64,000 bases of DNA from Catajapyx aquilonaris. Lineage: Eukaryota. How positions within the stretch are numbered: position 1 is the stretch's first letter; each line of letters begins with the position of its first letter. The DNA lies in the NCBI GenBank assembly GCA_000934665.2, contig KZ538249.1, positions 1 to 64,000 of the forward strand, read 5' to 3'. Of the stretch, positions 15,901 to 54,400 are shown one piece after another. The notes under the pieces were generated by a model. It saw nothing but the letters and a program-made list of their open reading frames with translations, had not been told where the DNA came from and made no database searches. The translations under genes were made by a program, and so were the position numbers.

Positions 15901-16800
15901 TCATGGAACATATCAAATGGATTTTTAAAAAAGCATCACAAGAGCATTAAAAATTGATGTTCCATGAGTGTCACCAGCAATGCTCTTTTCATGTTTTGCG
16001 GTTTACAGCGTACTGATCCCCCCCCCCCCCCCACCCACNCCCCAAAGAATACTTATCCACCATCCTGCCGTCAGATGTAAGAAGACCGTAACTCAAAAAC
16101 TAGTAAGGGCGAAAGTCGCATGCACGCCCGGCACTAATCCCCTCTGAGCCAGGGTGGATTAGTGCACGGCATGCATGCGACTTTCGCCCGTACCAGTTTT
16201 TGAGTTACGTTCTTCTTACAACTGACGGCAGCATCTCAGCTATGAATACCAGAACTGGTGCCCATTCTATGTTCCATTGCAGGGCGCATGTGGCAAAAAC
16301 GTTCCGTCGTGAACAAGTTTCAACAGGAACATATTTTAATGGCTGGACTGCTGCAATGCCCATTCTGCTGCATGTAAATCGAAAGTTGCAAATATGTTCC
16401 GTACTGAACAAGTTTCACCGGTAACATTCCCCCCTCCCCATAACAATTTACGCACTACCCAAGCTATTAATACCAGAACTGCTGCCCATTACGTTGCACG
16501 TAAGCGGCTGCCCCAAAAAATGGTCTGTACTGAGCAAGTCCTTTTTTTCCCCCCTGAACATAATTGTGCCATTAACATGTTTACACCCTTACGATTTGGC
16601 ACCCATCCAAATACCCTACACAAAGAGCAAACAAAGAGTAAATCATACATTGTGGGGGGGCCCCACCCTTTTGTGCCGGCCGGCTTCCCCCACCCCACCC
16701 CACCCATGCCACCCAACAACCCGACCCAAACCCTCCCCCAAATCCATATAGTAATATACCCTTTTTTTTCCATATATTAAACTGCACCAAACATTACCAT
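9984..16800 (-). CDS. Rsf1: Rsf1-like RRM + RGG/GRS-rich splicing regulator; predicted coding exons 16800-16798 (ATG only), 14433-13715, 10744-10592 (candidate cassette), 10020-9984
   Basis: The RRM GTRVYVGGL..KKEDLEQEFEKYGKLNNVWVAFNPPGFAFVEF..LNGEEYMGCTLKVEISRGR matches arthropod Rsf1 and is followed by RGG repeats and RSRSP. Downstream phase-2 exons continue the frame (..SARDYGAKPAYGGPRDSY..; ..SMRGPQPSQPRY*). The main exon is certain; the flanking exons are inferred from splice signals. Confidence 0.85.
15004..15143. mobile_element. MITE-like inverted repeat in Rsf1 intron
   Basis: aggcccattttctggaacagtggttcaaatgtaaacc pairs with ggtttacatttgaaccactgttcgagaaaacaggcct. Confidence 0.7.
15851..16015. 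mobile_element. MITE-like inverted repeat (CACTGTAAA-type end)
   Basis: cagtacactgtaaactgcaaaacatgaaaagagcat pairs with atgctcttttcatgttttgcggtttacagcgtactg. Confidence 0.7.
16065..16231. mobile_element. Palindromic MITE-like element, family A
   Basis: ctgccgtcagatgtaagaagaccgtaactcaaaaactagtaagggcgaaagtcgcatgca pairs with tgcatgcgactttcgcccgtaccagtttttgagttacgttcttcttacaactgacggcag. The core is shared with 2380-2468. Confidence 0.75.
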
Positions 16801-18630: not shown

Positions 18631-18840
18631 AGCGTACAAAAAGCATCAGTTTGAATATCATTGGGTAAATGCATGTAATTACGTTATTAACGCATAATGC
18701 ATTAGAAAATATACTGCGCTTGATAGTTGCAATAGGAACACAACTTGATTTATTTACAATTGATTTACAACTGACTTGTCTAATGTCATGCAGGTTTTTT
18801 TACCCTCCTGGATAGTAGAGTCCCAAAGCACGCTTGTAGG

Positions 18841-21800
18841 ATGGCAAATAATAATAATTCGGCAAACAGTCCACCGACTGCAGGCAACCAGCCGCCACAA
18901 CACAAGCGTGAATTGCCCCTGATCCTAGTCCCGTTCGGTAGTGATGGTGCTAATTTGCCTGAGAAAGATGCTTTGAACTTGGATGAGACGGTTGAGAATC
19001 ACTTGTACAGTGGGCTCAAGTCCATGAAAGGCTTGAAGTTGGGGAAGAACACCACGCGGCTTGTGATCGCTGGTCAGCCTTTGAACACGGTGGAAGGTTT
19101 GGACACCATGCCACAGTTGTATGAACTGTGGATCAGCGAGTCCGAGCTGAAAGAAGGACCTAATCTGAGGGCCGTGCCATCACTGATATCTCTGACTCTC
19201 ACAGGAAACCAAATAAAAAAAATGCAACCACTCAGTTACCTGCCACAACTGACACTCATCAGGATGGAAAAAAATCAGATTACATCTTTCAGGGTATGTT
19301 TCACTTATTACTGCAGTTACTCATTGTGGTGAAACATAATTTTTCCCATCCAACTGCAGGATTTTGGCACCCTTCCATCTCTGAAGAGGCTTTACGTAGA
19401 TGGCAACTGCATCCACCACCTGTCGGACTTGCGCTTTCAGTTCCCTCGCCTGGAGGTACTCAGCCTGAGCGGGAATCCCATCACCTCTTTAAAGGAACTG
19501 TCCCGTCTGGGCACCCTCCCATGCCTGAAGGAAGTCAATGTGGCGCCAGGCCCCTGTGGGGAATGCCCCGTGTTCCATTCCGTCCTCTTAAATCACTACA
19601 TGACCTACCACCTCCCAAGTCTGGAAAGGATTGGCAATGGCATGGACGTTGGCCCTGAGGAAAAGAAGGAGGCGATTGACTTTCTGACCCAGCGGAAGCT
19701 GATCTACCAGGCGGAGGCGCAGGACGTTTGGAAGAAGCAGGCCTTAGCAGAGCGGACCACAATAACCGAGCATCACCGAAGAATCAACGCTCTTCGGGAG
19801 AGGCTCTACCAGCTCATGGCAGCTCAAGTCAGGATGAGGGACGGATCTAGGATGAAGAGCAAGGAAGATGTGCGTAACTGGTACCTCAAGGTGCAGGCTA
19901 GGATTGATCGCATCTGCAAGAAGGTGGCCTCTTTCGAGGAGGAGCGGATGGTGTCCACAATCAATCTCAAGGCTGAGGCGCAGGTAGGTGCAGGGAAAGT
20001 CTTCATCATATCCAAGTTTCACTGTAATGCACATAAAGTTTAATGTGTGACACATGTTGCAGTCAATATATTTCGAAGAAGCTAATGGAGTTGAATGGTG
20101 TGTGTATTTTAAAATGTAACTGTTTTAAATCCAACAGCTTAAAATACAATACCTAAACATGGAGCTTGAGAATGTCGGGAATGTGGGTCTGGAGAAATTG
20201 CTTCCTGGCAGCAACCCTTATCACCATTGCTCTGCGCTGATGGCAGAGTTTTTTTGTCATCAAGAATACATGTATGCCACGCACGTACTTGTCACAAGTT
20301 CCTAGGAGAAAATGTCAGTTCACTCACGGACAATTACATTCCAACATTGTAACCCGCAGGAAAATGGGAATCACCGGCTACAACATCCTAGAAATCAGCG
20401 GAGTGAAGAACGCCGTCCTGAATAAAGTGTTTGAATCAAGGAAAATGGATCAGGCGTTGGTCGGCATGGGAGACTACAAGCTCAATCACGTTGAGATTGG
20501 ATACGCTTTGCTCGTTCCTCCTGCAGAGTATGACTCTAGGTATACATTACTCAACCACTTAGCTGTGTGAAAGTGTACATCTGCAATGATTCCTCTAAAC
20601 CTAATACTCCCTCCGCCCCAGCTACCTGTCACTGTACACGAGTAATGCAGAGCGAGAGAAGGACTGTGTGTGGCCTCCGATGTGGGAGGACGAGCTGACT
20701 TGGGTCCTCCGGCCCACCGAACACGGCTTCTACCCACGCACTGAGAAGTACCCCGCCCCATCCTGGCTCTTCACAGATTGCCTTGCCCATGCGGACTGGC
20801 GCTGGGTGAAGGACTGGCGCCAGTATCAAGCATCCAAGGAGCATGCCAGGACTACTGCAGCCAGCTTGCTGGATGGTGGCGTGGGGCTGTCGGTCATGCT
20901 GAGGAGAAGGGTGGCACTGCTGGTCAAGATCATCATCAACGATATGGCCCCCTGCAACTTAATGGGTGCGTGGGGACACAGCGACGATGTGTACGTCCAA
21001 GATAGGCGAAAGCCGTCCGCACAGAGTTCGCAAGACTCGCAAGAAGGAGTCGAGGACGGAGAGAAAGAGGAAGAGGATGCGGATTGGAGCTCCATGTACC
21101 GGAATAACTGCGGGCATTGGAAACTCAGGAAAGGTTGCGTTTTCAGTGCCGTGCCGGCTTACCTTGTGCGCTATGAGTACACAGGGTCTGTAAGTGAACC
21201 ATCAACAAAAGCACTCTTAGACAGCGATTATATGCGAGCAATTTGCTCAGCAATGAGCATCAGTGAGTGACGAAACTAATAGTTTGCGGCAAAATAAGTA
21301 ACAATCATGGTAACAATTTATGTTCGCTCCAAACAATAGGTTTCGTTGCTCAGCGATGCTCATCGTTGAGTGAATTGCTCACATGTAAGCATGGCCACAT
21401 ACTTGTAAAGCATGTCCATGATATATTTTAAAGCATTTTATACAACGAAATTTCAAGGCATATTACAGTTATTGTTGTTCAAGCCCACATTTCAACTCGC
21501 ATTGTTGAACTGTTTCAGACGCAGACATTGCCAGCCATATTGCCATCCAATGACGATGAACTTCTTCAGTTTTCCATCACTTACGGTGACAAGCAGAAGA
21601 AAGAGTCGATCAAGTTTGAGATTTTCAGGTACTGACGCAGGATCTCATGCCATTTTTAGAGAAAAACATTAATGCAACAATGCCCTCTTTTGTTCCAAAC
21701 CAAATGAAAAAAAGGAAGCACTTCTCAAGCAAACTGACGGAGTTGGTGCTGTCTGGTCTTGGCTTCAACGAGATGGGTCCTTATCTGTGCCAAGTGGTCG

Positions 21801-25220: not shown

Positions 25221-27455
25221 TTATACCATTACAGTAATTTGCTCTCGGGTTCGTTCTATTTTGATTGGCAGCAGACTGACCATCTCTTGGCAAACCTCCA
25301 ACTCGGGGCTCATAATTTTTGCAGCTTCTGCATGTTTTTCGCAATAATCCACAATTTTCTGTAAATAAAAAAGGTACACACATTACACATCCCGTACCCC
25401 TGTTGTTACAGGTTGCAGTCACCATCCATTTGTTACCTTGTAACTTTCGTAGCTTTTTGTCATGTGGTCTAATTTTTCATTCGGCTCTGGATTGATGATC
25501 TTTCCATGCAGCCTGCCCACATGAAAATAGGCCACCAACGCAGGTCTTAGAGTGTCATCTGAGAATGTCTCTGGCAAGTTGTTGGTACTGTGGAAGATGA
25601 TAAAATGGCATGTTAAGGTTTGTGTGAGCTAAATTATGATTCGTGGGCTGCACCTTGTCTCCCGAAGCGAATTGATGAAGGCCTCGAACTGCTCGAGGCT
25701 CTGCAACGCCAGGCGATTTATCTTCTGCAGGACGTGAGGAGTTGTCTGGTTTTCTGGGTCCTCCCTTAGCCGCTGCAATTTCAGATCCATCATGTCTGAA
25801 AGGATCTCACCAAGCTCAAACCACAGCTGGCGGCATATCAGCAAGTAGTACGTTGGATTCAGTTCTTTCACCACAGGCTCCAGGAGATCCACACGTCGCT
25901 TGTGCATCCTGCACTGCCTATGGTATGCAAATTGTGAATGTAAATGCACTGAAGCTTCATGCCAATATGACAGACAATGGCACAATGCCTAACCTCTCGT
26001 CACTGTTCTCAAAGAAGGCAAGGTGCTTGTAGGCTTGACTAAGATCCTGGACTATCTGCACATGATCTGAAGCATGGTCTTCCATGGAGTAATACTCCTG
26101 TGCCTCCTTCAGATAACGTTGCGTTTCCAAGAAGACCAGCCGGGCATCATCGTAGTCCCGCAGGGGTTTGTACGTCATTTGGTCCTCATACGACGACAGC
26201 TCTAAGGAGGGAAAGCACATCTGGTCCTCCTCTGCCTCCTGTTCACTGCTTGCTTTCTTCTCCTGTTCTTTTTCATCTCCCTTACATTCCTCCTCATTAG
26301 GATCCTCTTCCTCAGCCATCTTCAATAACCGTTCTTTGGAATAGGACAGAAGAAGAAGGCCAAACTTACTCCAACATCGGCAGACGTCAGCTCTTCTGTG
26401 GCGGTAAGCTTCACATCTGAATGGAATATTATCTCCGTCAGTGAAATCCAATATTTCTGCTTTGCATATACTGACCTGGCTTGCTTTTCCTCATCCTCTC
26501 GACTTTGTTCCTGTGCCTGACCCTCCTCAGGCCAACCCTTGTTCAAGTCAGCCCCTAATTCCGCTGCGTACCGATCCAGCACACAAATGGCTGCAGACAA
26601 GTGATGCCTCGCAGGTTTAAATGCATCTCGGGACAGAAAACACTGGGACAAGGTGGCCGCATTGAGGGCCCACTCCACCGGATCTAATTCACCACTCTCC
26701 AGCTGTCGACGCAGTGTGCGGTGGCAGTAACGCACTGACAAATGGTTGTTCCCGAGGTTACCGTGTACCTGCGCCAGGTAATACAAGCTGTGGGTGAAAG
26801 CAGCCTCCAGCTTGGCCAAGTTGCCCACAGACGCACCCCACGGCTCCAACTCTGGACGGAACAGCTCTGCCATATCATAAGGCGGCTCACACACCTCACT
26901 GGTGTAGGTCTCATACAGGCGTTCCGCATTCTCCAGATATTCCTGGAGATGGACAGGTTTTAATTTCATACCGTACGTGCTCCACAATGTGCATACCTGT
27001 GCCTGCTGCGGATCATTCCTCTGTGCCCACAGCACTCCCAACTGGTTCAGCGCGGCCATAGCAGGCAGGACAGACATGGGTGCGGCCATAGCGGCAACGG
27101 ACGATCCTTCTTCCCCTGGATTAAGCGCAGCCAAGCATTGAGTGAGCATCTCCTGTCCAGTGGCCAGCTCCTCGGTGTCCATCCCGATGATTCCCGTCTG
27201 ATAGAGCACCACAGCATGCATGCACCTCAGCCTCTCCGCATCCAGCACAATCACGCTCCCGTCGTCCCTTCCCTCGTCCATTCTCTTAGCCAGCTCCTTC
27301 TTCATGGATTCCAGCACCTCCCTGGCCTTGTACTTTGACCTGTACGGCTCCGTCTCCGGATCCAGCTTGCTCTCCTCCTCCATCAACTTCCGCACCTGCT
27401 CCAGGTCGTGCTGGAGGTCACGCACCCACTCTACGTCCTTGTCTCTTCCTTCCAT
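25221..27455 (-). CDS. KIFBP: KIF-binding protein (KBP/KIAA1279 family); exons 27455-26997, 26942-26476, 26416-25994, 25917-25654, 25587-25437, 25358-25221
   Basis: Motifs DPETEPYRSKYKAREVL, THSLYYLAQV, YCHRTLRRQL, EWALNAATLSQ, QCRMHKRRVDLLE, RPALVAYFHVGRL and ELEVCQEMVSLLP. Exons join in frame across GT-AG introns. Confidence 0.92.
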
Positions 27456-27842
27456 TACTGCTCTGAAAGCAATGGGCATGCTAAAATCACCTAGTATGTA
27501 CCCAATTTTGGTCATTACACCTCACAATTTACTCACCTAGTTTAATTGTTTGACCTTTATATTTTTTGTAATTGGTCTTTCTGTACCTTGCTAAGCTTAC
27601 CTGAGTTTTTTTGCACCTTCCTGTAGCTATTGGTTTGGGAAGGAAATCAACCAACTCTTGAATTTGCTGAAAATAAGTCACTTTCTGCAAATACTATCGA
27701 TCGACCGTACTATTGACATCTACAAATAACGATCCAAATGTCGATACTATTCTGAAACGCGCCAAATTCAAGCTTTCTTATTAATTTATTAATTATTTCT
27801 AAGTACAATTTGTCTGAGCATTTTGTTGGAATGAGTAGATTT

Positions 27843-30800
27843 TCATGGCTTGGGCAGCCTGTATGTTCCTCCTGAGAAGAGGAGCTTCTGTTCCTGCACT
27901 TTTCTGTCCAGGAAAAGTCGCAGCTCTTGCAACGACCAGTCCCCGCCTGTTGGTCCCTGCAGTGCGAACATTCGGAGCATCTGGTGGATCCTTTCAAGGG
28001 GAAGTGTTTCTAGATTGGTCAGCATGCCCACTATGTATGACCAGAACACTTGGAGCTCCTCTTCACGTTGGTCCTGTGCGGACGCAAGAGCACTTTCCTC
28101 TTCGTCTTCCTCGGCGGCTGAGAGATCTAGGATTGGGCCTTCTGCACCACTGGTTCCCGCCCCGTATCCACCCTTGCCGCTGCCTCCCCCTCGGAGTGGA
28201 CCTTCCTCGCTGACCACAAATACATCTGTGGACACCTCCCGCAGCAGGCCCTGTGACTGCCAGAAGCCCATTCGGCGACGAAGGAGAGATGATGGCACTT
28301 TCATCACTTGACTCAGCTCTTCAACACTCCACTGGTCTGATAAAGGCAAGGATAAATAATTTGCAAGATGGCACTTGGAATTATAGACTCACCTTTTTCC
28401 TGGAAGTGCCAGATAATAGTAGCATGAACTGGCGACACAGTGAATGTGATTGTGCGTCCCTTTACTTCTACGTCAAGAGTCACAGAGCCCAAGTGCGGTT
28501 TCCAACTTAGAGTGCGGCTTGCCTATGGAAATTCATTTTGAATAAAATCAGGCAGCAACACTTAGGTATATTCCAATATTTTTGAAGTTCAGCTTGATGT
28601 CACCGTTGTTCTTGTAATCCGACAACAAGGTGGCATCAATCAGAACTGATCACACTGCTGTTAAAAGAAAAATTCTTAATTATTTTTAAGGTAAAGCACC
28701 TTGAGAGTCTCAAATGCCTTGGTGTATGCCTGAAGCTGACTTGAAATCTGAGGGGGCAACTCCAATATCTCTTCCCGTAGAGTAGGCCAAAACTGTGCTG
28801 ACACAATCATGGCACTGACATTAAGCGGCGGTGACCCATCTGCTGCCTCTTGAGTTCCTGTTACTAATGTCGGGTCTGACTCGAGTCTGGAATTAATCCT
28901 CTTTGAGTCATACATGTCCTTCAGCATGACTTCACAATCATGCAGCAGAGCTTCTCCAAAACGAAGCTTCAGCAGTTCCAGGTAACGAATTTCCCTCTCC
29001 ATACAGTCGAAATGATGGGCAAGAAGACGTTCTGCCAGTAGAGATTGGTACTCCTTGGCAAACACCTCTGTACTGCCGTATATAGACACCAGGAGTGATA
29101 TGATGTCTGCTGAACGGTGTGTCGAACGACCACCTTTGACACCGCCTCGTGGGTCAGCGTCCATGGGGTCGGGAAGCCATGTAGCCCATTCCATGCTCGT
29201 TGTTTCTTCTTCATCATCTTCTTCCATAGCAGGGCCTCCAGTGCCAGACTCATCCATCATCCTGCATGTTAAAAAATTAATTCATGAAATAATAATTACT
29301 ATATTTAAGTGTGTAGGCTTCACGAGTAATACGTACACTGAATCGACAGTCCTGACGCCTCCTCTTCCTCCACCCCCTTTAGCAAGCTCCTGCGCAAGTT
29401 CACTCTCTTCCAACAAGCTTGACAAAATGCATCTAACAGTGTCACGTCGGGAACGAAGGTAGCGTCTGACTGGAAGGCACACTAGTTGTAGGAGGACCCC
29501 TTGAGGATCAAGCTGCCTCAGGGTATGAATTGCTGCAATGTAGGCAGTCAAAATATCACTGGTATTCACTCCTGGATGGAGGAGGCGGGACTGAAGCGCG
29601 TTTCTAAGACTGGTCACCAAATGAGGGCGGAGGCCAGGTGGGGAGCGTGGAAGGCATTGCCTGAGGTCCTCTACTGCCGCTTGAGATTCAGGATAGTCTG
29701 TCACGAGTAAACAAATAATATGATTATAATTAATCAAGGAATTGGTTCAATTTATGCAAAGCAATGACTTGCCTACGATGATGCTAAAAAGCTGGTCGAT
29801 CCGTGTGTGAGCGAGCGTTTCATAAAAATAAAGCAGAAGTTGAGAATGGAACGAGGAGCGAGATTCAAGGACCTTGTCAGGGCCGTATATTACTTTCAGC
29901 CAGCCAACCACTGCCACTTGCAACCACTGAAAAATTTAAACCATTCCAAAAATTAAATCGTTGTACATACTCTTTGCATGTTAAAGAAAATTACAACATC
30001 TGTTGGTCATAATGTAAAGCAAATGTTCGTAAACTGTTGTCAGATAACTGCAATTTAGGTGTTGTTTTTTAAACGTACCTCTTCTAACACCTCCAATTGT
30101 GCTTGAAAATTAGCTTGGCATGACCTCTGCACATGACCTTTAATTTGCTCCTGAATGAGCTCCAGCAGTGCTCCTCCTGCAAGCGGATCTAGGAGTCCAA
30201 GAAACGTCAGCTGCTTGTTGACATCATGGAAGGAGGATATCACCTCATCGCATCTGCACCGCACCTGCTCACATCCACGGCAAGTGTCTGCATCATCCTT
30301 ATCGGTGCCCTCACTCTCAGCCCGATACGAAAACACCCGAAACGACCTCTCATAAAACGCAATCACCCCAACATGAAACTCAGCCGGTATCTGAGCATGA
30401 AGCATGGGCCGCAAATTGCAAAGGAATGTGTCCACCTCTCCCTTCTTGCCTTCAACCTTTCCTTTCAGATGTTCCATAGCCTATGGAATATGATAGGTAC
30501 ATTAAAAATAAAGTATGTAATTTTTCCGTCGATCTCACCTGAAGCATTGGTGTGAGCGACACAATTGTATGATGCAATTCTCCCACCGCAGTCTTGAACA
30601 TATCGCACAGCCCATCCTGGCTCTCCTCCTTCGCCTCGAAGTGCTTCCAAAAGGACGGCACCACCGCCTGCCTTGCCAGCCGTTCCAGAGTCACTTCCAC
30701 CATTCCGACCGTCCCCGTGGTTATGTCCAAATCCTTCAGCACTGCTTCTACATACTCCAAATCGTCAGGAGCTGCACATACTGCTTCTTTATCCCATGGA

Positions 30801-36240: not shown

Positions 36241-36559
36241 ATGTCGGACAGCAAGGATAAGGATAAGTCAGGCAAGGCCAGCCCTAAAGAGAAGAAGAAG
36301 CAGACGGGCCAGGTGGACATGGGCCACTTCGAGGAGGACGATGAGTTTGAGGAGTTTCCCGTTGAAGGTGCGGTGTGCTTTCCATTGTGTGTAAAAAGGA
36401 CTGGTTTTTTAGTGGGTGTTTCTTGCAGATTGGACGAGGGATGAGGAGAGCAAAGGGGAGAGCCACATGTGGGAGGACAACTGGGATGACGACAAGGTGG
36501 AGAGCCCCTTCAATGCGCAGCTGAGGGCGTCCCTGCAGAAGTTCAAGACTGGGAACTAA
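36241..36559 (+). CDS. SEM1: SEM1/DSS1 26S proteasome lid subunit; exons 36241-36367, 36429-36559
   Basis: ..DMGHFEEDDEFEEFPVE|DWTRDEESKGESHMWEDNWDDDKVESPFNAQLRASL.. contains both acidic DSS1 motifs. Confidence 0.93.
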
Positions 36560-37142
36560 CGGCGGCGAGGATTAGTAATCAACAGCTGCCAGTTCAACCG
36601 ACATGGACAGGATGTGGAAATTTTTTCTGTATAAAAACCCATCAACTTAAAAGTAAACTGATCTCATTGATGTGCGTGCAAAGCTTTTTCCAAGTGTGGA
36701 GGTTTCAGTTTGCAACTGGCTTACAATATTGTACGAGTTTTTTGAAAATAAAGGAAGTAAAACTGTGCTTCTGTGATTGTCTTCACTATTCAAGGCATCT
36801 GCAAATATTTTTATTGTGTTACTTACAAATGTCATGTGTCACATATGTGCAAACATTACTGTCGCTTATGTCCTCAAGTCTTGTAGGACTTGCCTTGAGG
36901 GAAAGGGAGAGTAGAAAGGAAGAGAGGGTGAACATTAACATCTTCTGTACGATCATATCCGAGTCATATGTATAACTACATAAATTTATTGCTCCTGTAA
37001 CATTATCAGGTATATACATGTTCCATATGTTCCAATATCACATACAATGGACGTGTAAAATAAAGTAAGCTGAAATAAGTACCATTTAAGTAAAAAAAAG
37101 CAGGGAAGCATTATTTTGTTGATATACAGTAACAGCCCAGAA

Positions 37143-37237
37143 TCTGACATTTCGAGAACATGTTAAAACATCCAAGTACCCCCAGGGCCTGACCCTTTAT
37201 GGGGAACTCATCATACTCACCCTCTTGACATGTCAGA
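37143..37237 (-). promoter_or_regulatory. SECIS element (form 2) in the 3' UTR of SelL copy 1
   Basis: Sense RNA reads AUGA-UGAGUUCCCCAU-AAA-GGGUCAGGCCCU-GGGGGUACUUG-GAUG. It has the AUGA/GA quartet, helix II, unpaired AAA, an apical mini-stem and an outer helix UCUGACAU/AUGUCAGA, and lies ~50 nt after the TAA. Confidence 0.9.
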
Positions 37238-37263
37238 TACCAAGCGTTACATTAGAACCAACG

Positions 37264-38430
37264 TTACTGGAGGGCTTGCATTATCTCATCCAGATTTGGC
37301 CTGTCGGTAGGATTTTGATTCAGGTGACACATGAGGAGTTTTCCCTCAGCATCTGCAATGATGTCTCCACCCATTTGCAGCAAATCATCAGGAATGTCAT
37401 TGTCGTGAACCAGTGGTTTCAAACCTGATGCCAGGATCTCGGTGTAACTTATAAGGCCTTCGAATCTTGCTGTCTGAATGCCAAGAAATTAATATTTAAT
37501 TGAAAGGAGAGGGTATTGAGTTCATAATCCCATGAGTTCAAACCTAACTAATGGATAGGATAAAAAGGGATTATAGCACAAAATTGAACTTCTCAATACC
37601 TACCAGATAAACAGATCTCGGTGCTCCAACAGAATTGTAGAGCATCATTGTTGGGTCCACATACACATCAAACTCGCACTTTGTGTCGGACACCCATTTT
37701 AAAGCCTCACCTTGATCCGAAAACGAAATTATTAGCACGGAGCAGCCAGCTTTTTTCAGTTCATCCTGGAATTGCACAAATATTGTAATTGTCGGTGTGA
37801 ATCATATTAGTAACACCGTACCTGATGTTGCTGCAGCATGCTCACATGCTGTCGTCACGGCAATCAGCTAAGGTGACGCAAAAGCACGAAGAGGCAAGTC
37901 CTGTCGTTGAGCACTTCCAGCAAAGTCTGTACTTCACCAGTGGTTAATTTCGTCAGCTTGATGTCTGCAGGCAGCTTTCCGCCTTTTCCAACGGGTGCAT
38001 TTGGAGCCACATTTCGGCTCATGTTCACATCCAACTCTTTCTTCAGATAATTATCCCAAGCATACTGTGGAAAGATAGGTAAACTCATGTCCTGTTTTTT
38101 AAGTGAAGCCCATACTCACTTGTGCTTCATACAGTTCATCAATTGCATCCTTGACTTCCTTTGATGGATCTTGCTCAACCGACACACGAACCGCATCGTT
38201 CAGAGTGGCCACTCCAAGGCTACAGAAAAGGCTGCGTTACGACCAAGCCCACTACAATATATGATTGTGGCCTACCTCTTAAAAAGTGTAAGATAGAGTT
38301 TGACAAAAATGGGCAGAATCTTCCCACCCTCAAAGAGCTTCTCTGGGTCACCCTGGCAGTGCTCCCTTGCCTTCACTATCAAATCAAGGAGGGTCTCCGT
38401 CGCAGTCTGGAATGCCTCAGCACCTCCCAT
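37264..38430 (-). CDS. SELENOL: Selenoprotein L (thioredoxin/AhpC-TSA-like fold, UxxU), copy 1; exons 38430-38276, 38219-38120, 38064-37822, 37765-37604, 37473-37264; 289 aa, Sec at residues 152 and 155
   Basis: Reads CLFVLLRHLS-TGA-L-P-TGA-RQHVSMLQQHQ (TGA at 37866-37864 and 37857-37855). The frame continues through GT-AG introns to QMGGDIIADAEGKLLMCHLNQNPTDRP. A SECIS lies downstream. Confidence 0.9.
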
Positions 38431-38831
38431 GGTGGTGCCACACTCTGTACTGAACACTAGACCTTCGACCTCACTAGACGGTGCGATGATCAGATGATTA
38501 GTAGAGAGTACAGAGGTCAATTGAAGTCATGAGACATGGCACGTGGTTTGGACAAGGAACGAGCCGACACGTTCCCTCACTTGTTGTGGCACGAACGCAC
38601 CCTCGGTGATATCACACTGGCGGCAAATAAAAGCCAACTGACTGTTGATTTCTCGTTCTACTTACGAGAGCAACCGAGTGCGTATCAACACTAGCGCAGA
38701 TCCATATATTGTTCTTACTGTTACAACACAGCTTTGCCAGAGTTACTACCGTACCTGTAGCCAGTGAGGTTCGTTTCAGAGCCTTGGCAACTTCGTAACT
38801 CGTCCCCCTAGCGTAGCGTTGGAAATAAGTG

Positions 38832-39110
38832 CCCAGGTAGCACAAAAAGTTGGGCCAATATTGGACGAATGTTGGCCCAATATCTTGAATCTTGGGCAAT
38901 ATTGGCCTATCTAGCCACTCTGAAGCCATTATTGGGCCGATATTGGCAGCAGATCTATTCCCATTCAAACTCCTCAAGCAGCACAAAAAGTCGACCCAAC
39001 GTAGGAACCAATGTCGGGCCGATGTCGCGTGAAGGTCGGCAAATATGTCGACGTAGCCAGTCTGCTGTGGCGAATCTTGGCCGAATGTCGGGAGCCGACC
39101 TATCCCCATG
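38832..39110. mobile_element. Two adjacent fragments of a CCCAG-terminated MITE-like repeat
   Basis: cccaggtagcacaaaaagttgggccaatattgg.. and agcagcacaaaaagtcgacccaacgtagg.., with repeated ccaatattgg / ccgatgtcgg submotifs. Confidence 0.4.
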
Positions 39111-39452
39111 CTAACTCCTGCGAAGGCAGATAATAGCGTAGCAGCTTTATAATGCGTGACGTCGCGAGTTGTGTCGTGTGTACAGTACAGGAGTAGCCTA
39201 CTACCAGAAGAGAGACGAGAAAAGGTTGCTTGAGAAGCTGCTGGGCCAATAATAAGAAAAGAAAATTGCGAATGCTGACATGGTTAGCTTTCAATTTTGA
39301 CCTAATTAATTACCATTAAACTACCAGAGGTTGCGTTCCTTCCTCCTAGCAGTAGTGTGCTGATGATAGTCTCGTCCGAGGTAATGTCACTGCAATTTTC
39401 CTTATGAGTAAATTCACTTTCGGCCACATTGTTATGACGTTCGTTTCAATTC

Positions 39453-39543
<91 letters not shown>

Positions 39544-39549
39544 AATAAT
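39453..39549. repeat. (AAT)n microsatellite
   Basis: About 32 taa units with one interruption. Confidence 0.97.
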
Positions 39550-39680
39550 TGTTCAGCAAATTGTGAAATTGCACTCTCCAATTTGAATAAGAAGACAAAG
39601 TAGGAAAGACGTCCCACACCACGAGTTGGAGGCTTGACGCTGGCGGTGTGGCATTTTCGCTAATACTAATACGTATAGTT

Positions 39681-39757
39681 GGAGGCCTTTATGCACAAAG
39701 GAACCAGGTGTCATGTGAATCACATGACACCTGGTTCCTTTGTGCATAAAGGCCTCC
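39681..39757. repeat. Perfect palindrome, 38-bp arms with a 1-nt spacer
   Basis: ggaggcctttatgcacaaaggaaccaggtgtcatgtga-a-tcacatgacacctggttcctttgtgcataaaggcctcc. Confidence 0.95.
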
Positions 39758-40188
39758 GTTGTAATACAGGCCTCTTGACGTCACAATGGCAATAATGATC
39801 AATAGTAAACTAGAGATGATGTCACACCTTGTTATTTGCAGAATGGGTGCCATTGTGATTTATTGTTCGGAATTACGGGTACCATGTCTTTTATGAATGC
39901 AATGTACCCAAAAAGTAGAGGGTCAAATTTTTGCCGCACTGCTAGTTACTGCTAACTAGCTATAGCAGTAGGCCTATACAGGCTGTACCATTGCCAACAC
40001 GGGTGCTGTTAATATTATGGTAAGTCCTACATCAATTTATTGCTCCTGTAACAGATATTATCAGGTACATGTTCCATATGTTCCACTACACATATCATTG
40101 ACATATAAAATGTGGTAAGCTCAAATGAGTACCATTTAAGTAATAAAAAGCAGGGAAGCATTTGTTGATATACAGTAACAGCAAGGAA

Positions 40189-40286
40189 TCTGACATTTCA
40201 AGAACATGTTAAAACATCCAAGTTCCCCCAGGGCTTAATAACCCTTTATGGGGAACTCATCATACTCATCCACTTGATGTGTCAGA
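40189..40286 (-). promoter_or_regulatory. SECIS element (form 2) in the 3' UTR of SelL copy 2
   Basis: Sense RNA reads AUGA-UGAGUUCCCCAU-AAA-GGGUUAUUAAGCCCU-GGGGGAACUUG-GAUG, with outer helix UCUGACA/UGUCAGA. Confidence 0.9.
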
Positions 40287-40312
40287 TACCAAGCGTTACA
40301 TTAGCACCAACA

Positions 40313-41460
40313 TTACTGGAGGGCTTGCATTATCTCATCAAGATTTGGCCTGTCAGTAGGATTTTGATTCAGGTGACACATGAGGAGTTTTCCCTCAGCA
40401 TCAACAATGATGTCTCCACCCATTTGCAGCATATCATCAGGAACATCATTGTTGGGAACCAGTGGTTTCGCACCTGACGCCAGGATCTCGGTGAATCTTA
40501 CAAGGCCTTCGAATCTTGCGGTCTGAAATCAAAAGGAATGGATTCTTAATTATTGAAAGGAGAGAGCGTGTAGAGTATACGTAATACTATACTAAAGTGG
40601 TCAATTGAACTTTTCCTATCAATACCTACCATATAAACAGATCTCGGTGCTCCGACAGCATTGTAGAGCATCATCGTTGGATCAGCGTACATATCAAACT
40701 CGCACTTCGTATCGGACACCCATTTTAACGCCTCACCTTGATCCGAAAAGGAAACTACTAGCACGGAGCAGCCAGCTTTTTTCAGTTCATCCTGGAATTG
40801 CGCCAAAATTTTAATTTTTTGTGCGAAAAATAATTTTATTTCCGCCATACCTGATGTTGCTGCAGCATGCTCACATGCTTTCGTCACGGCAATCAGCTAA
40901 GCTGACGCAAAAGCACGAAGAGGCAAGTCCTGTCGTTGAGCACTTCCGGCAAAGATTGTACTTCACCAGTGCTTAATTTTGTCAGCTTGATGTCTGCAGG
41001 CAGCTTTCCGCCTTTTCCAACAGGTGCCTTTGGAGCCACATTTCTGACCATGTTCACATCCAACTCTTTCTTCAGAAAATAATCCCAAGCATACTGTGGA
41101 AAGATAGGTAAACTCATGTCCTGTTTTTTAAGTGAAGCCCATACTCACTTGCGCTTCATACAGTTCATCAATTGCATCCTTGACTTCCTTTGATGGATCT
41201 TGCTCAACCGACACACGAACCGCATCGTTCAGAGTGGCCACTCCAAGGCTACAGAAAAAGTCTGCGTTACGACCAAGCCCACTGCAATATATGATTGTGG
41301 CCTACCTCTTAAAAAGTGTGAGATAGAGTTTGACAAAAATGGGCAGAATCTTCCCACCCTCAAAGAACTTCTCTGGGTCACCCTGGCAGTGATCCCTTGT
41401 CTTCACAATCAAATCAAGCTGGGTCTCAGCTGCAGTCCGGAAGGCCTCAGCACCTCCCAT
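40313..41460 (-). CDS. SELENOL: Selenoprotein L copy 2; exons 41460-41306, 41248-41149, 41093-40851, 40791-40630, 40522-40313; 289 aa
   Basis: Reads CLFVLLRQLS-TGA-L-P-TGA-RKHVSMLQQHQ (TGA at 40895-40893 and 40886-40884). Exon lengths equal those of copy 1 (155/100/243/162/210), and there are no other stops or frameshifts. Confidence 0.9.
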
Positions 41461-41709
41461 GATGGTGCCACACTCTCTACTGATGGACACAGCAGGCCGT
41501 GCGACGATCAGGAGACTGGTAGAAAGTAGCCTACATAGAGGTCAATTGAGTGGATCGGAACACCTTTCCAACTGAGAAAACACGATTTTGCTGAAGCAAA
41601 GTTAAAAATCCGCTAAAATCTATTAAATCAAAATTAAAATCCTCTCCACTACTCAGAATTCATATACATTCAAGGCACGATTCAGGTCAGTATTCTAAGG
41701 CCGTGATTC

Positions 41710-41824
41710 AATGTAATAAACAACGAAAACTTTCAATAATGAGGACAGTGGCGACTGTGGCGTAACTAGTCGACTAGTTACGCCACTGTCCTCATTATTG
41801 AAAGTTTTCGTTGTTTATTACATT
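41710..41824. repeat. Near-perfect palindrome centred on actagtcgactagt
   Basis: aatgtaataaacaacgaaaactttcaataatgaggacagtggcg pairs with cgccactgtcctcattattgaaagttttcgttgtttattacatt. The left arm has a short extra duplication. Confidence 0.9.
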
Positions 41825-42482
41825 TATATTATATTTATTTATTTGTTTGTTTGTTTCTCAATGTCTATATTTAGGCGTCTCGCAAATACCACATATACGT
41901 GACTGAATTTAGGCCACATTTCCACCCCGCGCGTGTTTTTTTATTATTTTAAAGGCAATGTGATCAGAAAATGCTAGCTCCTCAACTTAACCACGCACGT
42001 AAAAAAAACATGCCTCCCAATGTTTTCGGGGTCGCTGATTTCGAATTTTAGGTTATTATTTTGAACCAAAACCTACAGAGTGATGTACCGAAAACACTGT
42101 TGAATTTAAGAGCTTGTAGGATAAATTGTTCTTAATTAATTAAGAGGGTTACTAAAAGAATTTATTCCATATAAGCTCTCTGTAGGTCTCATACATACGG
42201 CCACCTATGATCCGCCTGGGTAAGCACACTCCCATCAGCGAGCGCCTCACCCAGCCGGACCTGGAACTACCCGGCGTGGCTGGGCCGTCAGTTCCCTTCC
42301 AAGGCTCCAGCCAGCTGCAGGGAGACTCACTCGTGTGATGGCCGCAGTGATGGTCAGGTGGAAGCAGGTCCTCTTCCGCCACCCGCCGCTCCTCCTCCTC
42401 CTGCCCGTGGCTCGCCCCTGAAGTGTCCCGTGTGTGTGCGTGTGCGTGCCCCCTCCACTGGAACAACCAGCCACACGTCACT

Positions 42483-45400: not shown

Positions 45401-48400
45401 ATCAAATGTATCATTACGGCTTAAAAGGCTATTTGATAAATGTGCGTTTTGTTTACTAGTGGGGCCTACAGTCCAGAATGGCCGGGGGCAACTGCTGTAA
45501 TTGTATGCAGTTGGACATATCATATTTTATTAGCAAGGGCGTGCATAATGAAATAATACATAGTTGGAATAAATATGCCTATCACTTCGTACTGTACGTA
45601 TATATTTCATTGCATCTGACTTTTGGCTGCCTTTTGCTCTATATATTTTTCATTACGGTTTGTGCAGCTTTTGCTGAGCCTTGTACATGCCAATACTGTA
45701 CCGTATTTTGGGATGTTACGTAATCTCTCAAAGTGCATTACTGCAGAAAGTGACAGCTGAGAAGGCTTTATTGATTGTATGTGTCAGGATTACTGCTTAC
45801 CAGATGGAAAGCCCAGTCACGTAACCTGTCTTGGAAATGCCAGTTGTTGTTTTTTTTTACATAGGGCCAAACAACAGCTGAATATTCAGTTGCAAACTGT
45901 ATACAGGATATATAATTTTTATTATTAAATTTCTATATTGGTATATTTTTGTATATTTTTGTATTCACACTAATTGCCCTTCATTTCTAGTTATTATTCC
46001 AGAAAAGTTAGGACAGATTGTTGTCATTTTTGACCTCCAAGTGGCGGATACATGAACTGAGGTCAACCAATTGGAAGCGAGCGGTTGGAAATAAAGCAGT
46101 GCCGGTTGGAAATACGTCCTAAATTTTTTGTCTGTGTGTGAGGAACTGTTGCTTCTGCCTAATTCTCCATCGAGGCGACCAGGCGCGACAAAAGAGAATC
46201 TGGCGGCATTGTCAGACCTGGGGATAAACAGTGTCTGTGGAAAGGACCACAAAAGCCTCCCTGCAGGGTGGGGAGGATGTTGTTCGCAAGAGGTGTGTAG
46301 AAGGGGGCATAGGGGTGGGTGAGGAGTGGGTTGATCCCGGCTGTTAATTAAGGTGAAAGGAGTGGCAGGGCACAATGAAGTTGGCATAGGCGCCGGCGTC
46401 GAGACTCTTGCAGCCAACTTCTTCCTTGCGGAATGTGGGTTCCGGAGAGAGAGAGAGAGAGTTTCAAGGCAAACTTCACTTGCTCACTTTCGGATGCCAA
46501 TTTCGGGCGTCCTCATGCAAAGTTTGGGACCCAGGACCGGCCAATTGTTTGCTCCGACCTCTGGGCTGCTGTCATTGCCTGAGAGGACATTGGGGACCGG
46601 ACGTGGACTTTGTGCAAGACGTGCTTTGGGGGGAAAGGCAATATCTTTACCAAGCTTTGATGACCAACTTCAATTAATTGCTGGGTAGGAGGAGATGGGT
46701 ATTGGCTTCATTTTTGGAGAACGGGGTTTCAAACATGTGCCAATCAGACTGGGTTTATTTGATGTAATTTGAACTCTGTAATTCGTGTACTGATTCATGT
46801 ACCGACTTGGAGGTGGTATTTTGTGCTCAACAAATACCCTCTACAAGTCAGTACTGTAGATGGTATTTGTTGATCGCATAATACCACCATAATACCAAAT
46901 ATGCAGCACAATACCAAATATGAGGAATTTAGTTCTTAATGTCTTTTATATACATTTAATTTATAAATCCAATTCAGCCCATAGTAAGGTATATTGATGC
47001 TCCCAATATTCATCAAAAAAATAGGTGCCAATCTGACTTTGCTGTTTGTCATCAAAATGTTAATTTTTCTGGCGTGCAATGAATGTCTAATACGTTGGCT
47101 GCTACATTAGCATGAGCTGAGGCTTACGTAATAAGATATTGAATTACCTGTATGTCATAATGGTCCTCGCAGTGCTTACTATTTATTACTACATTAGTGT
47201 AAACTTACATCCGAGTTTTCTCATGCAAATGGGTTGCCCTTTCCTCTAAGGCGTACTCGATGTAATCTATTTGACGACGTAACATGCAGTCCTGTGGAAA
47301 CAGTACAGTGAAACTCCATTTGCGTGTTAGCATAAATTAGGAAATTATTTCTGGTTAAGTTAGCTAACACAATTTAAACAACCGTTCCCGGGGAGTAAGG
47401 CAGAAATGAAAACAGAGTCGGCAGCACGAACCACAGCAAACAGGAAATTTCCGCTAGTTTTATTCCAGTATTAATTTTGGGGCATGAAATATAATTATAT
47501 AAAAAAATTCTCCCGTTCGACTCTGCCAGCTCAACACAGTGTGAGTCACAACTTCCATGTTGTAAAGCAGCCAGCTAGGTTGTTTTCAGTATGGAATTGC
47601 GTCACTATTGTTGTCATTTATGAATTCCAATGTGGCCTCATTTTAAATGTTTAAAAATTTAGCCTATTAGCTACTGGACGGGTAATTTTGACTCCCTCTG
47701 TACAGGGTTGAATTAGCATTGCACTGACATTATAAACCGGAATGAAAAGGGGGGGGGGGGGGGGGNNNNNNGGTGAGGTTGTCGCAGGTTGCCTGGCTGG
47801 GCGTTTGCCCGGGGCCTAAAGCGGATTTAACCTGAGCCCGTATCACAAACCGGGTGTACCGGAAAGTGCCCTAATCCCTCCTTCCTCATATTCCCTGACA
47901 TTCCTCCTCTCTCTAGGTCTCCCCCTAGGTTAAAATGCAAGGGTCGAGTTGCATATCTCTTCATTTTACAGGGCTCTCCCCCTACCAGCATAGAGCAGTA
48001 TGCGACCTAATTAACTTCTCGCCGCCTCAATCTTGTTTGGGATGCTCCACCTGAGAGATGGGCTTAACTGGCGGAGCAGCCACTAGATTGTTTCATTTTC
48101 TTGGCTAACTCGGGGAGCTTCAATTTTACCTGGAATGACCATTCCAGGGGAGGTCATTATTGTTGCTTTATTCGGGTAGGTCAGTGGCTTGGCTGCATGA
48201 GGGGTGAATGTTTCAGGAGGCTAAAAGAAGAGGGGGGATGCTAAATAAACAATGGGGTGTGGTTGGTGCATGTCTCGCAGGAGGTATAACTAGTTGGAAG
48301 GTTTTTTTTTTTTTTTTCAAAAGAGATTGCGAGTACTGGAATGTTCCTGTAGCTATGATAAAATTGAATTAAATGAAGTAAAAAAATCCGATGAACTCAT

Positions 48401-51400: not shown

Positions 51401-54400
51401 TGTTGGATTTCAAAGGTGCGAATTTTGGTGGGAAAGCAAAATTTTCATATTGGGTGTGTCAAACGGGGTGAGATTGTGTCAGGGTATCCTGGGAGTCAGG
51501 CTTCCCTGCGAACAACCCTGCCTGGCTGTTTGCCCTCGAGAGTCAGGATACAAGAAGGCTACACTCTTAACCATTTACCTTCTCTAGAGAGGGTAAGAAA
51601 GTGGCCATTTTTTACCCTTTTTTACCCTTTATTTTCTAAGGTAATACATGCAAAATTTACCTTATAATCAATTTACCCAAGAATATTTACCCTACAATGT
51701 AAGGTAAAAAATGGCCACTTTCTTACCCTCTCTAGAGAAGGTAAATGGTTAAGAGTGTACCTGTTATGGTATAGAAGGCCTTTGTTATTGTTATAAAGCG
51801 GTATAGGTTCCGGGTTAATTTTCCTCCGGTGGGGCTAGGGATTGTGTGTCATTACATGTTATTGAAGGTATAACTTACCTCGGTGTATGAAAACGGAACC
51901 CGTCTCATTACACAGGATCATCCGCTTCCACGGAACAGGTGTTAATGAACCCATGGTTATGCGATCATTGGCCGGACTCTAATTAAAACGCAAGTGTACC
52001 GCAGGTTGGGACTTTGTTTGACTATGCCACAAATTCGGAAATGCCTAGACGCATTTTGGGGGTACAGAACCACTAGCTATTAATAACCAACGTTTATTAC
52101 GATTGTTATTGTGACTAGTAATGACAACAATTGGGGCGTCATTTGGTGAGAACACTCGATATGTTTCCAACTTAATTTTTACACGCCTTTTGGGGATAAA
52201 ATTTATCTCTGAAAATTTCTGTGCGTCCAGCGCCAGGGAAATATTTCAGCAGAAAATCCGAGCCCCCCAAAATTAGAACCCGCATTATCTTTCGCTGGAG
52301 GACAATACGTTGCAGCGCACTGCATAACTGTCAAAAGACCCCCTAATGCATCGCACTAATTTGCTCGCCGACTTTCCAGCCCAGGTTTTCAAGAGCCATT
52401 GAATATGCGTGTGCCATAGGGGCATTAGTCACGTAAACAAACGCTTGCTAAACAGTCCTAAAAAAAATGAGGGGGTAGCATCATACTGTGCGGATATAAT
52501 CCAGTACTTTTTTTCCCCCCCTCACTTCCCTGGAGCGCAAAATTCTTTTCCACATACATTTCCACCCCTTGCCCCATATCGGTACTCACCATAATAAATT
52601 TATGGGAGCCGCACGGAGGCTCAGATGCACTCTGTCAACTGCAGGAAGCAGCCCTCAGGACTGGAAAATAATAATAGTAATAACAACAACCTGGCGCCAC
52701 CTTTTTTTTTTTGGGGGGGGGGGNNNNNGGGGGGGGGGGGAGGTTACATATGGTATACCATATGTAATCTCCCCAAAAAATAAGGTGGCGCCATATTTTA
52801 AAATCCACCTGATTTTTTGGGGAGGAAATTACATATGGTATACCATATCCCCTCCAAAAATTAAAGTAAATATTTTAAAAAGTGAGGGCCATATTTTAAA
52901 ATGGCGACCTCCTATTACAAGGGTTATCAGCTGATCGATCGGGGTAAACCCGGCTCCAAATTACAATTCCTGGAACTCAGCATCAATACCAATTATTATG
53001 ATTCATAGGGCCATTACCCAAATTACGTAACCACCTTTCCCCCCTCCGGAGCCTTAACTTTTTGGGACGGAAATTATTGGAGGTATCACACGCGGAATGA
53101 AACCACCCCCCCTCTCTTTTATGGGGAAGTATCAGGAGTGAGAGCATATCAGGATCGGCCGATCGGCATTAATCCCCATTTGCATTGCAGATGGACGGCT
53201 TCCTGGTAATGGGCCTGGGTCAGTAATTTATACATACCCTATTTTTTTATAAATTTTTGCTGGAAAAAATGATGGATTAGTATAGGGATGTACATCTGAG
53301 TAATGAATGGTGGCGTATCTCGTTAACTTCTTTTTATTGGCTTTTCATTATCATTTAGATACCTTCTTCAGGTCCGGGTGGAAATGGGCTTCCGATGAGG
53401 CTACGGTTCAGGAATTGGACCTAACCCCCCTGAGGGGGCGGGGGGTTTGAAGCATGGGATTGCATGTTGATTTAATACCGAATTTCCTGGAGGCTGGACA
53501 CCCAAAAAAATGGGGAGGAAATGAGGGGGGGGGGGGTTAGTCAGCCGTAAAAATAGTGTATGACCGGGGGTTTGGCGTGAATTAAAGGAGATGGGTATAT
53601 GGCCGACGTATCAGGGCTTTTAGGCAATCCATAGCTCGGGTTGTCAATTAAGGTTATATGTCCACGGACATCGCACTCACTTTTTCTGACTGTAAGTGAC
53701 ATGGTAACGATGCCCTCGGGAACGAAGGTGGCATGTTTGGACGGGGCTCACTCCAGCGATGTGATTTATTGCTGGGCATTAAAAAATTACACTTTAAATT
53801 CGGGTCGGAACATGTGTGGGGACAGTGTTAGGTGTGTGTCGCGTGGTACATGTGACGAGTGGTACGGTAATTTATGTTGGGGGGATGAGGTATTGCAGTT
53901 TTGCGAGGGTGTACTTGCACCGATTGCATGAAGAATATGCAGTGCTGCTGCTAATAGGTAGGGTTGCATGCGTAAACACGAGTTGTTCAAAGGGCTGTCA
54001 ATTAATTAAATTAATTAATCAGTTAATTGATATTGCGTTTTGAACCCGATGCTATCTTTACTGCAGTATATAGACTTACTAAATCAGTGTGATCATTAAA
54101 ATGCAGCGTAATGATGGGCGTTAATACTTATGCGAAAAATTGTGTATGATTTTATTAGCTTCTGAATTGTACGAACAACATGCCCTGCTCTTCCTCCTAT
54201 CATGTCCCCAAATCGCTCTGCAAGCAAACTACTGCGCATGCTCAGAAAATCCTAGTGTGACGTCAGATCGTTCTTTGGTTTACAGGACTGTTTTTTTTTT
54301 GTTTAAAAATTAAGGAATTTGCTGCTGTCAATGACATCACCAAGTTGTATGAACACAATTTTAAGAGAAAAATCTCTGATTATGCAAACCCTGTGTGTTG

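Follow-up and report, generated by a model that had tools for sequence, protein, structure and literature searches.

Does the reading frame at 37264-38430, on the minus strand of a 64,000-nt stretch of the Catajapyx aquilonaris genome (assembly GCA_000934665.2, contig KZ538249.1, positions 1 to 64,000 of the forward strand; the whole stretch is hereafter called the window), end at the UGA codon that closes it under translation table 11, or does it continue as a gene for selenoprotein L (SelL), in which two UGA codons specify the selenocysteines (Sec, U) of a UxxU redox motif? The latter had been proposed in an initial annotation made from the DNA letters. Reading UGA as a stop leads to systematic mis-annotation of selenoprotein genes, and at this locus two 151-aa fragments or pseudogenes would probably be the output of a standard pipeline. 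Our analysis indicates that the window very probably contains, in a genome of metazoan type, a tandem pair of intron-containing genes, hereafter copies A and B, each encoding a 289-aa selenoprotein L-type protein with a UxxU motif.

Gene structure and splicing of copy A

Copy A is composed of five minus-strand exons, flanked throughout by GT..AG, whose joined frame of 870 nt consists of 289 codons and a TAA. Its features are given below, together with the contigs of a public run (X1) and the matches to the NCBIfam family NF040769 ('SelL-related redox protein') that bear on them:

38276..38430, minus strand: exon 1, with the ATG at 38430-38428; an X1 contig covers 38276-38435
38120..38219, minus strand: exon 2; joints 38219/38276 and 38064/38120 present in X1 contigs
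37822..38064, minus strand: exon 3, 81 codons, phase 0, containing both TGAs; NF040769 positions 11-51
37864..37866, minus strand: predicted first Sec codon of UxxU (TGA, codon 152), retained without change in the spliced contig and aligned with the first Cys of the bacterial CxxC
37855..37857, minus strand: predicted second Sec codon of UxxU (TGA, codon 155), unchanged in the spliced contig; aligns with the bacterial CxxC
37604..37765, minus strand: exon 4, 54 codons; Pfam AhpC-TSA_2 positions 7-54 of 114 (E = 1.5e-9); NF040769 positions 53-99
37264..37473, minus strand: exon 5, 69 codons plus TAA at 37266-37264; NF040769 positions 128-172
36985..36990, minus strand: candidate poly(A) signal (AATAAA), near the 3' limit (36976) of the duplicated unit described below

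The start codon lies in the context caccATGG and is preceded, 33 codons upstream, by an in-frame stop, with no intervening ATG. As had been pointed out in the initial annotation, the table-11 open reading frame (ORF) ends at 37864. In the spliced frame, the only internal stops are the TGAs at codons 152 and 155, where the translation reads ...LFVLLRHLS-U-LP-U-RQHVSMLQQHQ up to the GT donor, in exact agreement with the arrangement LLRHLS-TGA-L-P-TGA-RQHV proposed earlier. Downstream of the TGAs, 134 codons extend across two introns without a further stop or frameshift, in copy B as in copy A, and the protein terminates with ...LQMGGD...NPTDRPNLDEIMQALQ. Both the 289-aa length and the QMGGD-containing C-terminus claimed for the spliced product were recovered with the five-exon model at 38430-37264; the accompanying statement that three more exon segments follow the UGAs holds when what is left of exon 3 counts as one of them, the further whole exons being two.

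Contigs of run X1, in which 59% of the sampled words of the locus were present, were placed on 36400-38900; they are uninformative on expression level, strand, and transcript ends. The contigs join 37473/37604, 37764/37821 (equivalent to 37765/37822), 38064/38120, and 38219/38276, and the intervals skipped (37474-37603, 37766-37821, 38065-38119, and 38220-38275, respectively) are bounded by CT..AC, that is, GT..AG on the minus strand, and coincide exactly with the four introns predicted for copy A. All four exon junctions, for which a check in RNA data had been suggested, are thus joined at the predicted sites in this run, whose library type is unrecorded. A 480-nt contig spans 37307-37972 in spliced form with 0 differences, which means that both TGAs are retained in the spliced molecule, neither removed nor altered; the initial annotation had considered transcripts from which the UGAs are spliced out, and the spliced X1 contigs carry both. 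Two further contigs, of 333 and 378 nt, cover 37992-38435 and 36959-37336, respectively, and in the latter the end of the coding sequence (CDS) is continuous with the 3' untranslated region (UTR) and with the hairpin element described below. The retention of both TGAs in spliced contigs and the recurrence of the same arrangement in copy B and in a metagenome contig (L001, see below) place it beyond chance.

A convergently oriented DSS1/SEM1 gene (36241-36559, plus strand; Pfam DSS1_SEM1, E = 9.6e-11) faces the 3' end of copy A. The loose end of an X1 contig at 36423 reads like an upstream DSS1 exon, and the DSS1 gene is therefore apparently spliced in X1 as well.

Family assignment and position of the motif

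In Pfam, exon 4 of copy A was assigned to AhpC-TSA_2 (PF13911; 38.6 bits, gathering threshold 27), exon 5 gave a weak match to positions 78-113 of the same family, and nothing significant was obtained for exons 1-3. In NCBIfam, NF040769 was the sole family matched by exons 3, 4, and 5 (E = 2e-9, 2.1e-6, and 4.5e-10, with 37.3, 27.5, and 39.5 bits, respectively), and the matches are colinear across the three exons, abutting over the splice junction. The same family was the sole NCBIfam match of copy B exon 3 and the best match for all three exons of L001, one of which had a weak second match. The assignment to the SelL family made in the initial annotation is supported by these results.

Members of NF040769 were sampled in two bacterial phyla at the family cut-off of 120 bits. 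In the first phylum, 11 of 301 genomes harbored a member above the cut-off (127-166 bits), and no in-frame stop at the motif was present among the 30 matches listed; in the second phylum, no genome out of 401 exceeded the cut-off. Reference scores were 20-36 bits for generic peroxiredoxin (Prx)-like genes in five test genomes, and 60-77 bits for sub-cut-off relatives. All ten fetched bacterial members above the cut-off contain the motif ...(F/L)(L/V)RHFG-C-x-F-C-(R/K)E.... When bacterial members and the spliced window proteins were aligned with MAFFT, Cys/Cys fell in the columns of U152 and U155 in eight of eight bacterial members, and the remaining two, recovered by profile, have the same motif (RHFGCIFCRE). 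The UGAs therefore occupy the position of a CxxC pair, as had been anticipated. Domain identity between the window proteins and the bacterial members is 16-23%.

Word-index protein searches with the UxxU exon, the C-terminal exon, and a three-sequence alignment of exon 4 gave no match, which is weak evidence. The exon 4 alignment produced 31 pattern matches in a prokaryote genome collection, none of them confirmed, and no match was found for exon 3 in a PDB sequence search or for exons 3 and 5 in a tblastn search of a plasmid collection. The PDB matches of exon 4 were de novo TIM barrels only and were discarded as spurious, and the AlphaFold model of exon 3 alone (mean predicted local distance difference test score of 56.5) was uninformative and was set aside. 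In a protein atlas, the top matches of exon 5 were unnamed bacterial clusters, with a 'putative Peroxiredoxin-like 2A' cluster at rank 13 (score 0.93) as a weak lead.

SECIS-like elements

According to the initial annotation, a selenocysteine insertion sequence (SECIS) follows the gene. An Rfam scan of the whole window at permissive thresholds returned 17 matches, two of which belong to SECIS_1 (RF00031):

37158..37222, minus strand: SECIS-like element of copy A, 26.2 bits (gathering 35), AUGA core from 37214
40204..40271, minus strand: SECIS-like element of copy B, 28.2 bits (gathering 35), AUGA core at 40263, fold z = -2.65

These are the only SECIS_1 matches at E<=10 in the window, and each is located downstream of a UxxU gene, one per gene, in the 3' UTR and on the coding strand. 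The AUGA starts 49 nt beyond the stop codon in both copies, and in copy A it lies at mRNA distances of 463 and 454 nt after the two UGAs, so that the announced element was indeed found where expected, at a sub-gathering score. The E-values of 0.8 and 0.22 for copies A and B, respectively, are multiplied by 4227 families and correspond to about 2e-4 and 5e-5 for a single family searched in the window. In both elements, AUGA is followed by a helix 2 of about 10 bp (all 10 bp paired in copy B) and by AAA 5' of the apical loop; a mini-stem and a 3'-side GA complete the layout. They share with the eukaryotic SECIS of RF00031 the AUGA...AA...GA core, the helix 2 of about 10 bp, the apical mini-stem, and the 3' UTR position, and differ from it in scoring below 35 bits. 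A layout with an apical mini-stem is called a type 2 SECIS. Our own crude pattern-and-pairing scanner gave 9 candidates on both strands of the window, including both SECIS_1 elements. With scores below the gathering threshold, the SECIS function of the two elements is putative.

A tandem paralogue and the duplicated unit

The second SECIS_1 match led to the discovery of copy B (41460-40313, minus strand), which was absent from the initial annotation:

41306..41460, minus strand: copy B exon 1
41149..41248, minus strand: copy B exon 2
40851..41093, minus strand: copy B exon 3, with TGAs at 40895-40893 (codon 152) and 40886-40884 (codon 155)
40630..40791, minus strand: copy B exon 4
40313..40522, minus strand: copy B exon 5 with TAA (40315-40313)

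Copy B has the five-exon structure of copy A and the motif LLRQLS-U-LP-U-RKHV. The two copies are identical at 259 of 289 residues and at 812 of 870 CDS nucleotides, and the Nei-Gojobori method gave 0.144 synonymous (dS) and 0.050 non-synonymous (dN) substitutions per site, with an overall dN/dS of 0.35. For codons 156-289, with 15 synonymous differences in 88 sites and 17 non-synonymous differences in 314 sites, dN/dS was 0.29 (Fisher p = 0.0012); for codons 1-151 it was 0.43 (p = 0.09). The part of the gene that a stop-codon reading would leave untranslated is thus under purifying selection.

The duplicated unit (36976-38453 vs 40027-41483; 87.6% identity over 1498 aligned columns) extends from 23 nt upstream of the ATG to approximately 290 nt beyond the stop, and no third copy of it was found in the window. 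Introns 1 and 2 (38120-38276 vs 41149-41306) are 95-100% identical between the copies, and introns 3 and 4 (37474-37821 vs 40523-40850) are 69 and 59% identical, respectively. Gene conversion affecting the 5' half of the pair is one possible cause of this uneven identity.

A distant relative in a metagenome contig

An exhaustive HMMER search of the UxxU exon (exon 3) against 1.84 billion protein representatives (E<=0.001) yielded two matches, of which one is a true relative: P0002, a 103-aa gene call that reads ...LFILLRHFA-W-LP-W-RQHV.... The other, P0001, is an RCC1-like repeat protein and was rejected as spurious. The contig behind P0002, L001, was recovered by a metagenome scan and has the motif codons TGA-TTG-CCT-TGA in the same context. 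It is eukaryotic, with two phase-0 introns at the positions of those of copy A and with exons at 1622-1783 and 1841-2059, followed by a TAG. Of the positions aligned with copy A, 22 of 63 upstream of the motif and 45 of 131 downstream of it are identical (~34%), and conservation is therefore undiminished past the TGAs. A hairpin located 45 nt beyond the stop combines AUGA, AAA, and GA with a mini-stem and a helix of 10 positions, one of them mismatched; at the rate of our own scanner, 0.05 such hairpins are expected by chance.

The N-terminal part of the L001 gene (900-1300) is divided by more introns than the window genes, and the gene model covers the contig from 1299 on. Another contig of the metagenome scan, L002, was rejected as an 11-residue chance match on a bacterial contig.

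TGA as a stop codon in the window

The TGAs that close ZW10 (7439-7441) and ANAPC2 (27845-27843) are located one and three residues, respectively, after the ends of the C-terminal Pfam domains (ZW10_C2, 2-152 of 152; ANAPC2, 1-60 of 60). TGA is consequently a normal stop here, and the in-frame TGAs of copies A and B require a special mechanism. Long exons of the window (380-399 codons) are devoid of TGA, and no tRNA was detected in the 64 kb. The presence of two UGA genes with SECIS-like elements and under purifying selection is indirect evidence for Sec-decoding machinery (tRNA-Sec, eEFSec, SBP2, PSTK, SepSecS, SPS2), which the genome would be expected to encode.

Comparison with known proteins and proposed mechanism

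The original description of SelL is reportedly that of Shchedrina et al. in PNAS in 2007. In the literature, SelL is presented as having two Sec two positions apart that share a single SECIS for their insertion (PMC3316567), and a peroxiredoxin-like motif able to form a diselenide (PMC13134290), and is termed 'a Prx-like protein' (PMC2398784). It is recorded from fish, invertebrates, and marine bacteria (PMC2397514), and tetrapods are described as the only vertebrates that lack it (PMC13134290). A 2012 survey lists SelL in five of six invertebrate genomes, with one gene each in Amphimedon, Trichoplax, Nematostella, Capitella, and Branchiostoma, and none in Lottia (PMC3473315).

The window genes resemble SelL (SELENOL) in the UxxU motif, in the single SECIS-like element of the 3' UTR for both UGAs, and in the peroxiredoxin-like domain. 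Their product of about 290 aa is also similar in length to fish SelL. They differ in that the UxxU exon has one true relative, a metagenome gene call, among 1.84 billion representatives, and in that the window contains two tandem copies, against 0 or 1 SelL gene per invertebrate genome as listed in the 2012 survey (PMC3473315). With the bacterial proteins of NF040769 they have in common the motifs (L/F)LRH(F/L)x-[C/U]-xx-[C/U]-R and QM(P/G)G...DRP; the fetched bacterial members, however, have CxxC (10 of 10) and neither introns nor an in-frame stop, whereas the window proteins have UxxU and an N-terminal part of about 125 aa. As the bacterial ORFs measure 183-342 aa from stop to stop, some of them may bear N-terminal extensions of their own. 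With SelU and PRXL2A-C, the window proteins share the AhpC-TSA_2 match of exon 4, a Pfam family that also includes SelU; a PRXL2A-like cluster figures among exon 5's feature neighbours. SelU has one Sec in a CxxU-type motif and is not known to have a long N-terminal part, whereas the window proteins would have Sec at both motif positions.

In the proposed organization, residues 1 to ~125 would form an N-terminal part, which matches no recognised family, and residues ~126 to 289 a peroxiredoxin-like, thioredoxin-fold domain (Pfam AhpC-TSA_2; NCBIfam SelL-related redox protein), in which the CxxC redox pair would be replaced by two selenocysteines, U152-L-P-U155, each encoded by UGA. Both UGAs would be decoded through the single SECIS stem-loop of the 3' UTR. 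By analogy with published SelL, the protein may be expected to function as a thiol/selenol oxidoreductase cycling between a diselenol and an intramolecular diselenide, with Sec insertion, diselenide formation, and substrate all being predicted.

Weighing of alternative explanations

If the TGAs were true stops, copy A would encode a truncated 151-aa protein or be a decaying pseudogene, with the downstream frame as a relic. The end of the table-11 ORF at 37864, the predicted nature of Sec insertion, and the sub-threshold SECIS scores are consistent with this, yet it is very improbable, given the dN/dS of 0.29 (p = 0.0012) at codons 156-289 between the copies, the equal conservation before and after the TGAs in a relative as distant as L001 (~34% identity), which has kept both of them, and the 134 downstream codons free of stops and frameshifts across two introns in both copies. 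The Prx-like domain itself, moreover, lies downstream of the TGAs, and SECIS-like elements are present in all three genes (A, B, and L001). A variant nuclear code, in which TGA would mean Trp or Cys and the product would be a WxxW or CxxC protein without selenium, is hardly credible: the rendering of both TGAs as W in the gene call P0002 shows merely the caller's choice of code for that contig, whereas in the window TGA terminates ZW10 and ANAPC2 just after their C-terminal Pfam domains and does not occur within exons of 380-399 codons, and the only in-frame TGAs found are those at the redox-motif positions, accompanied by SECIS-like elements.

A further alternative, which we consider improbable, is that the product is a Prx-like2 superfamily selenoprotein with UxxU but no orthology to SelL, being either of the SelU/PRXL2 type or from a Prx-like lineage with an independent gain of two Sec. 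It is compatible with a SelL assignment based on the defining features and the NCBIfam link, with the summed NF040769 score of ~104 bits, below the 120-bit cut-off, with the PRXL2A cluster in the atlas list of exon 5, though at rank 13 and with a score of 0.93, and with the membership of exon 4 in AhpC-TSA_2, which is also the family of SelU/PRXL2. UxxU sequences are also reported from another Prx-like 2 family in a marine metagenome survey (PMC2398784). NF040769, on the other hand, is the only NCBIfam match of copy A exons 3-5 and of copy B exon 3 and the best for the L001 exons, and the ~104-bit sum is well above the scores of generic Prx-like genes (20-36) and of sub-cut-off relatives (60-77). 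SelU contains a single Sec. Two Sec two positions apart with one SECIS are, as published, the hallmark of SelL (PMC3316567).

Several observations weigh against the reading of copies A and B as SelL genes. Orthology to fish SelL would rest on the defining features and on the NCBIfam link rather than on a direct alignment to a named animal SelL, and the NF040769 score of ~104 bits is a rough sum over single exons, to be set against a cut-off for the whole protein. The single true HMMER relative implies that the similarity of the UxxU exon to fish SelL is weak, or that fish SelL is absent from the library searched. The Rfam scan of the whole window at gathering thresholds returned no match, both SECIS_1 scores falling short of 35; the minimum free energy of the copy A element is no better than that of shuffled sequences (z = +0.23); and Rfam reported no SECIS in the 3' region of L001, the hairpin there being a product of our own crude scanner. 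Run X1, finally, has no recorded library type and possibly comes from the same organism as the assembly.

Within the SelL reading, copies A and B together with L001 could represent a divergent, lineage-restricted clade, perhaps with copies that differ in redox potentials or partners rather than being redundant. We regard this extension as doubtful. It was suggested by the N-terminal ~125 aa without a known family, by the one relative of the UxxU exon in the searched library, and by the retention of a tandem pair with differing motif flanks (RHLS-U-LP-U-RQ vs RQLS-U-LP-U-RK).

Significance for annotation

As SelL genes, copies A and B are new members of a family already known from aquatic animals, a result that is sound yet unsurprising to a selenoprotein specialist. 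The locus does not change what is known of the SelL family, and its value consists in correct annotation; P0002, a public gene call of a relative with its UGAs rendered as Trp, is an example of mis-annotation. SelL, described as having two nearby Sec able to form a diselenide bond (PMC13134290; PMC2397514), is little studied. Two correct tandem models with transcript-level support provide material on UxxU contexts, on the decoding of two UGAs with one SECIS, and for placing the organism among Sec-using lineages.

Genomic surroundings

Between the two copies, a 223-codon open frame without a Pfam match (38612-39283, minus strand) lies amid repeated GGCC(A/G)ATATTGG-like words, and several X1 contigs end loosely at 38662 and 38832-38835, pointing to a repeat or mobile element. 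The same interval contains a long (ATT)n-type microsatellite (39440-39590) and a sub-threshold Rfam match to mir-890 (39681-39758, 39.2 bits), which, like that to MIR7993 at 52746-52848 (44.8 bits), is probably a mere hairpin or inverted repeat. About 300 nt upstream of the ATG of copy B, at 41735-41825, there is a near-perfect long inverted repeat with arms of ~35-40 nt and a GTCGAC centre, resembling a hairpin or a miniature inverted-repeat transposable element. Small assembly gaps or ambiguous bases are present as N runs at 16039, 17135, 47766-47771, and 52724-52728. Metazoan-type neighbours include ZW10 (5486-7441, plus strand), an RNA recognition motif protein with a long RGG tail (13711-14553, minus strand), leucine-rich-repeat exons (18784-20043, plus strand), a KIF1-binding protein (26322-27521, minus strand), and ANAPC2, with cullin-like and ANAPC2 domains (27843-29746, minus strand).

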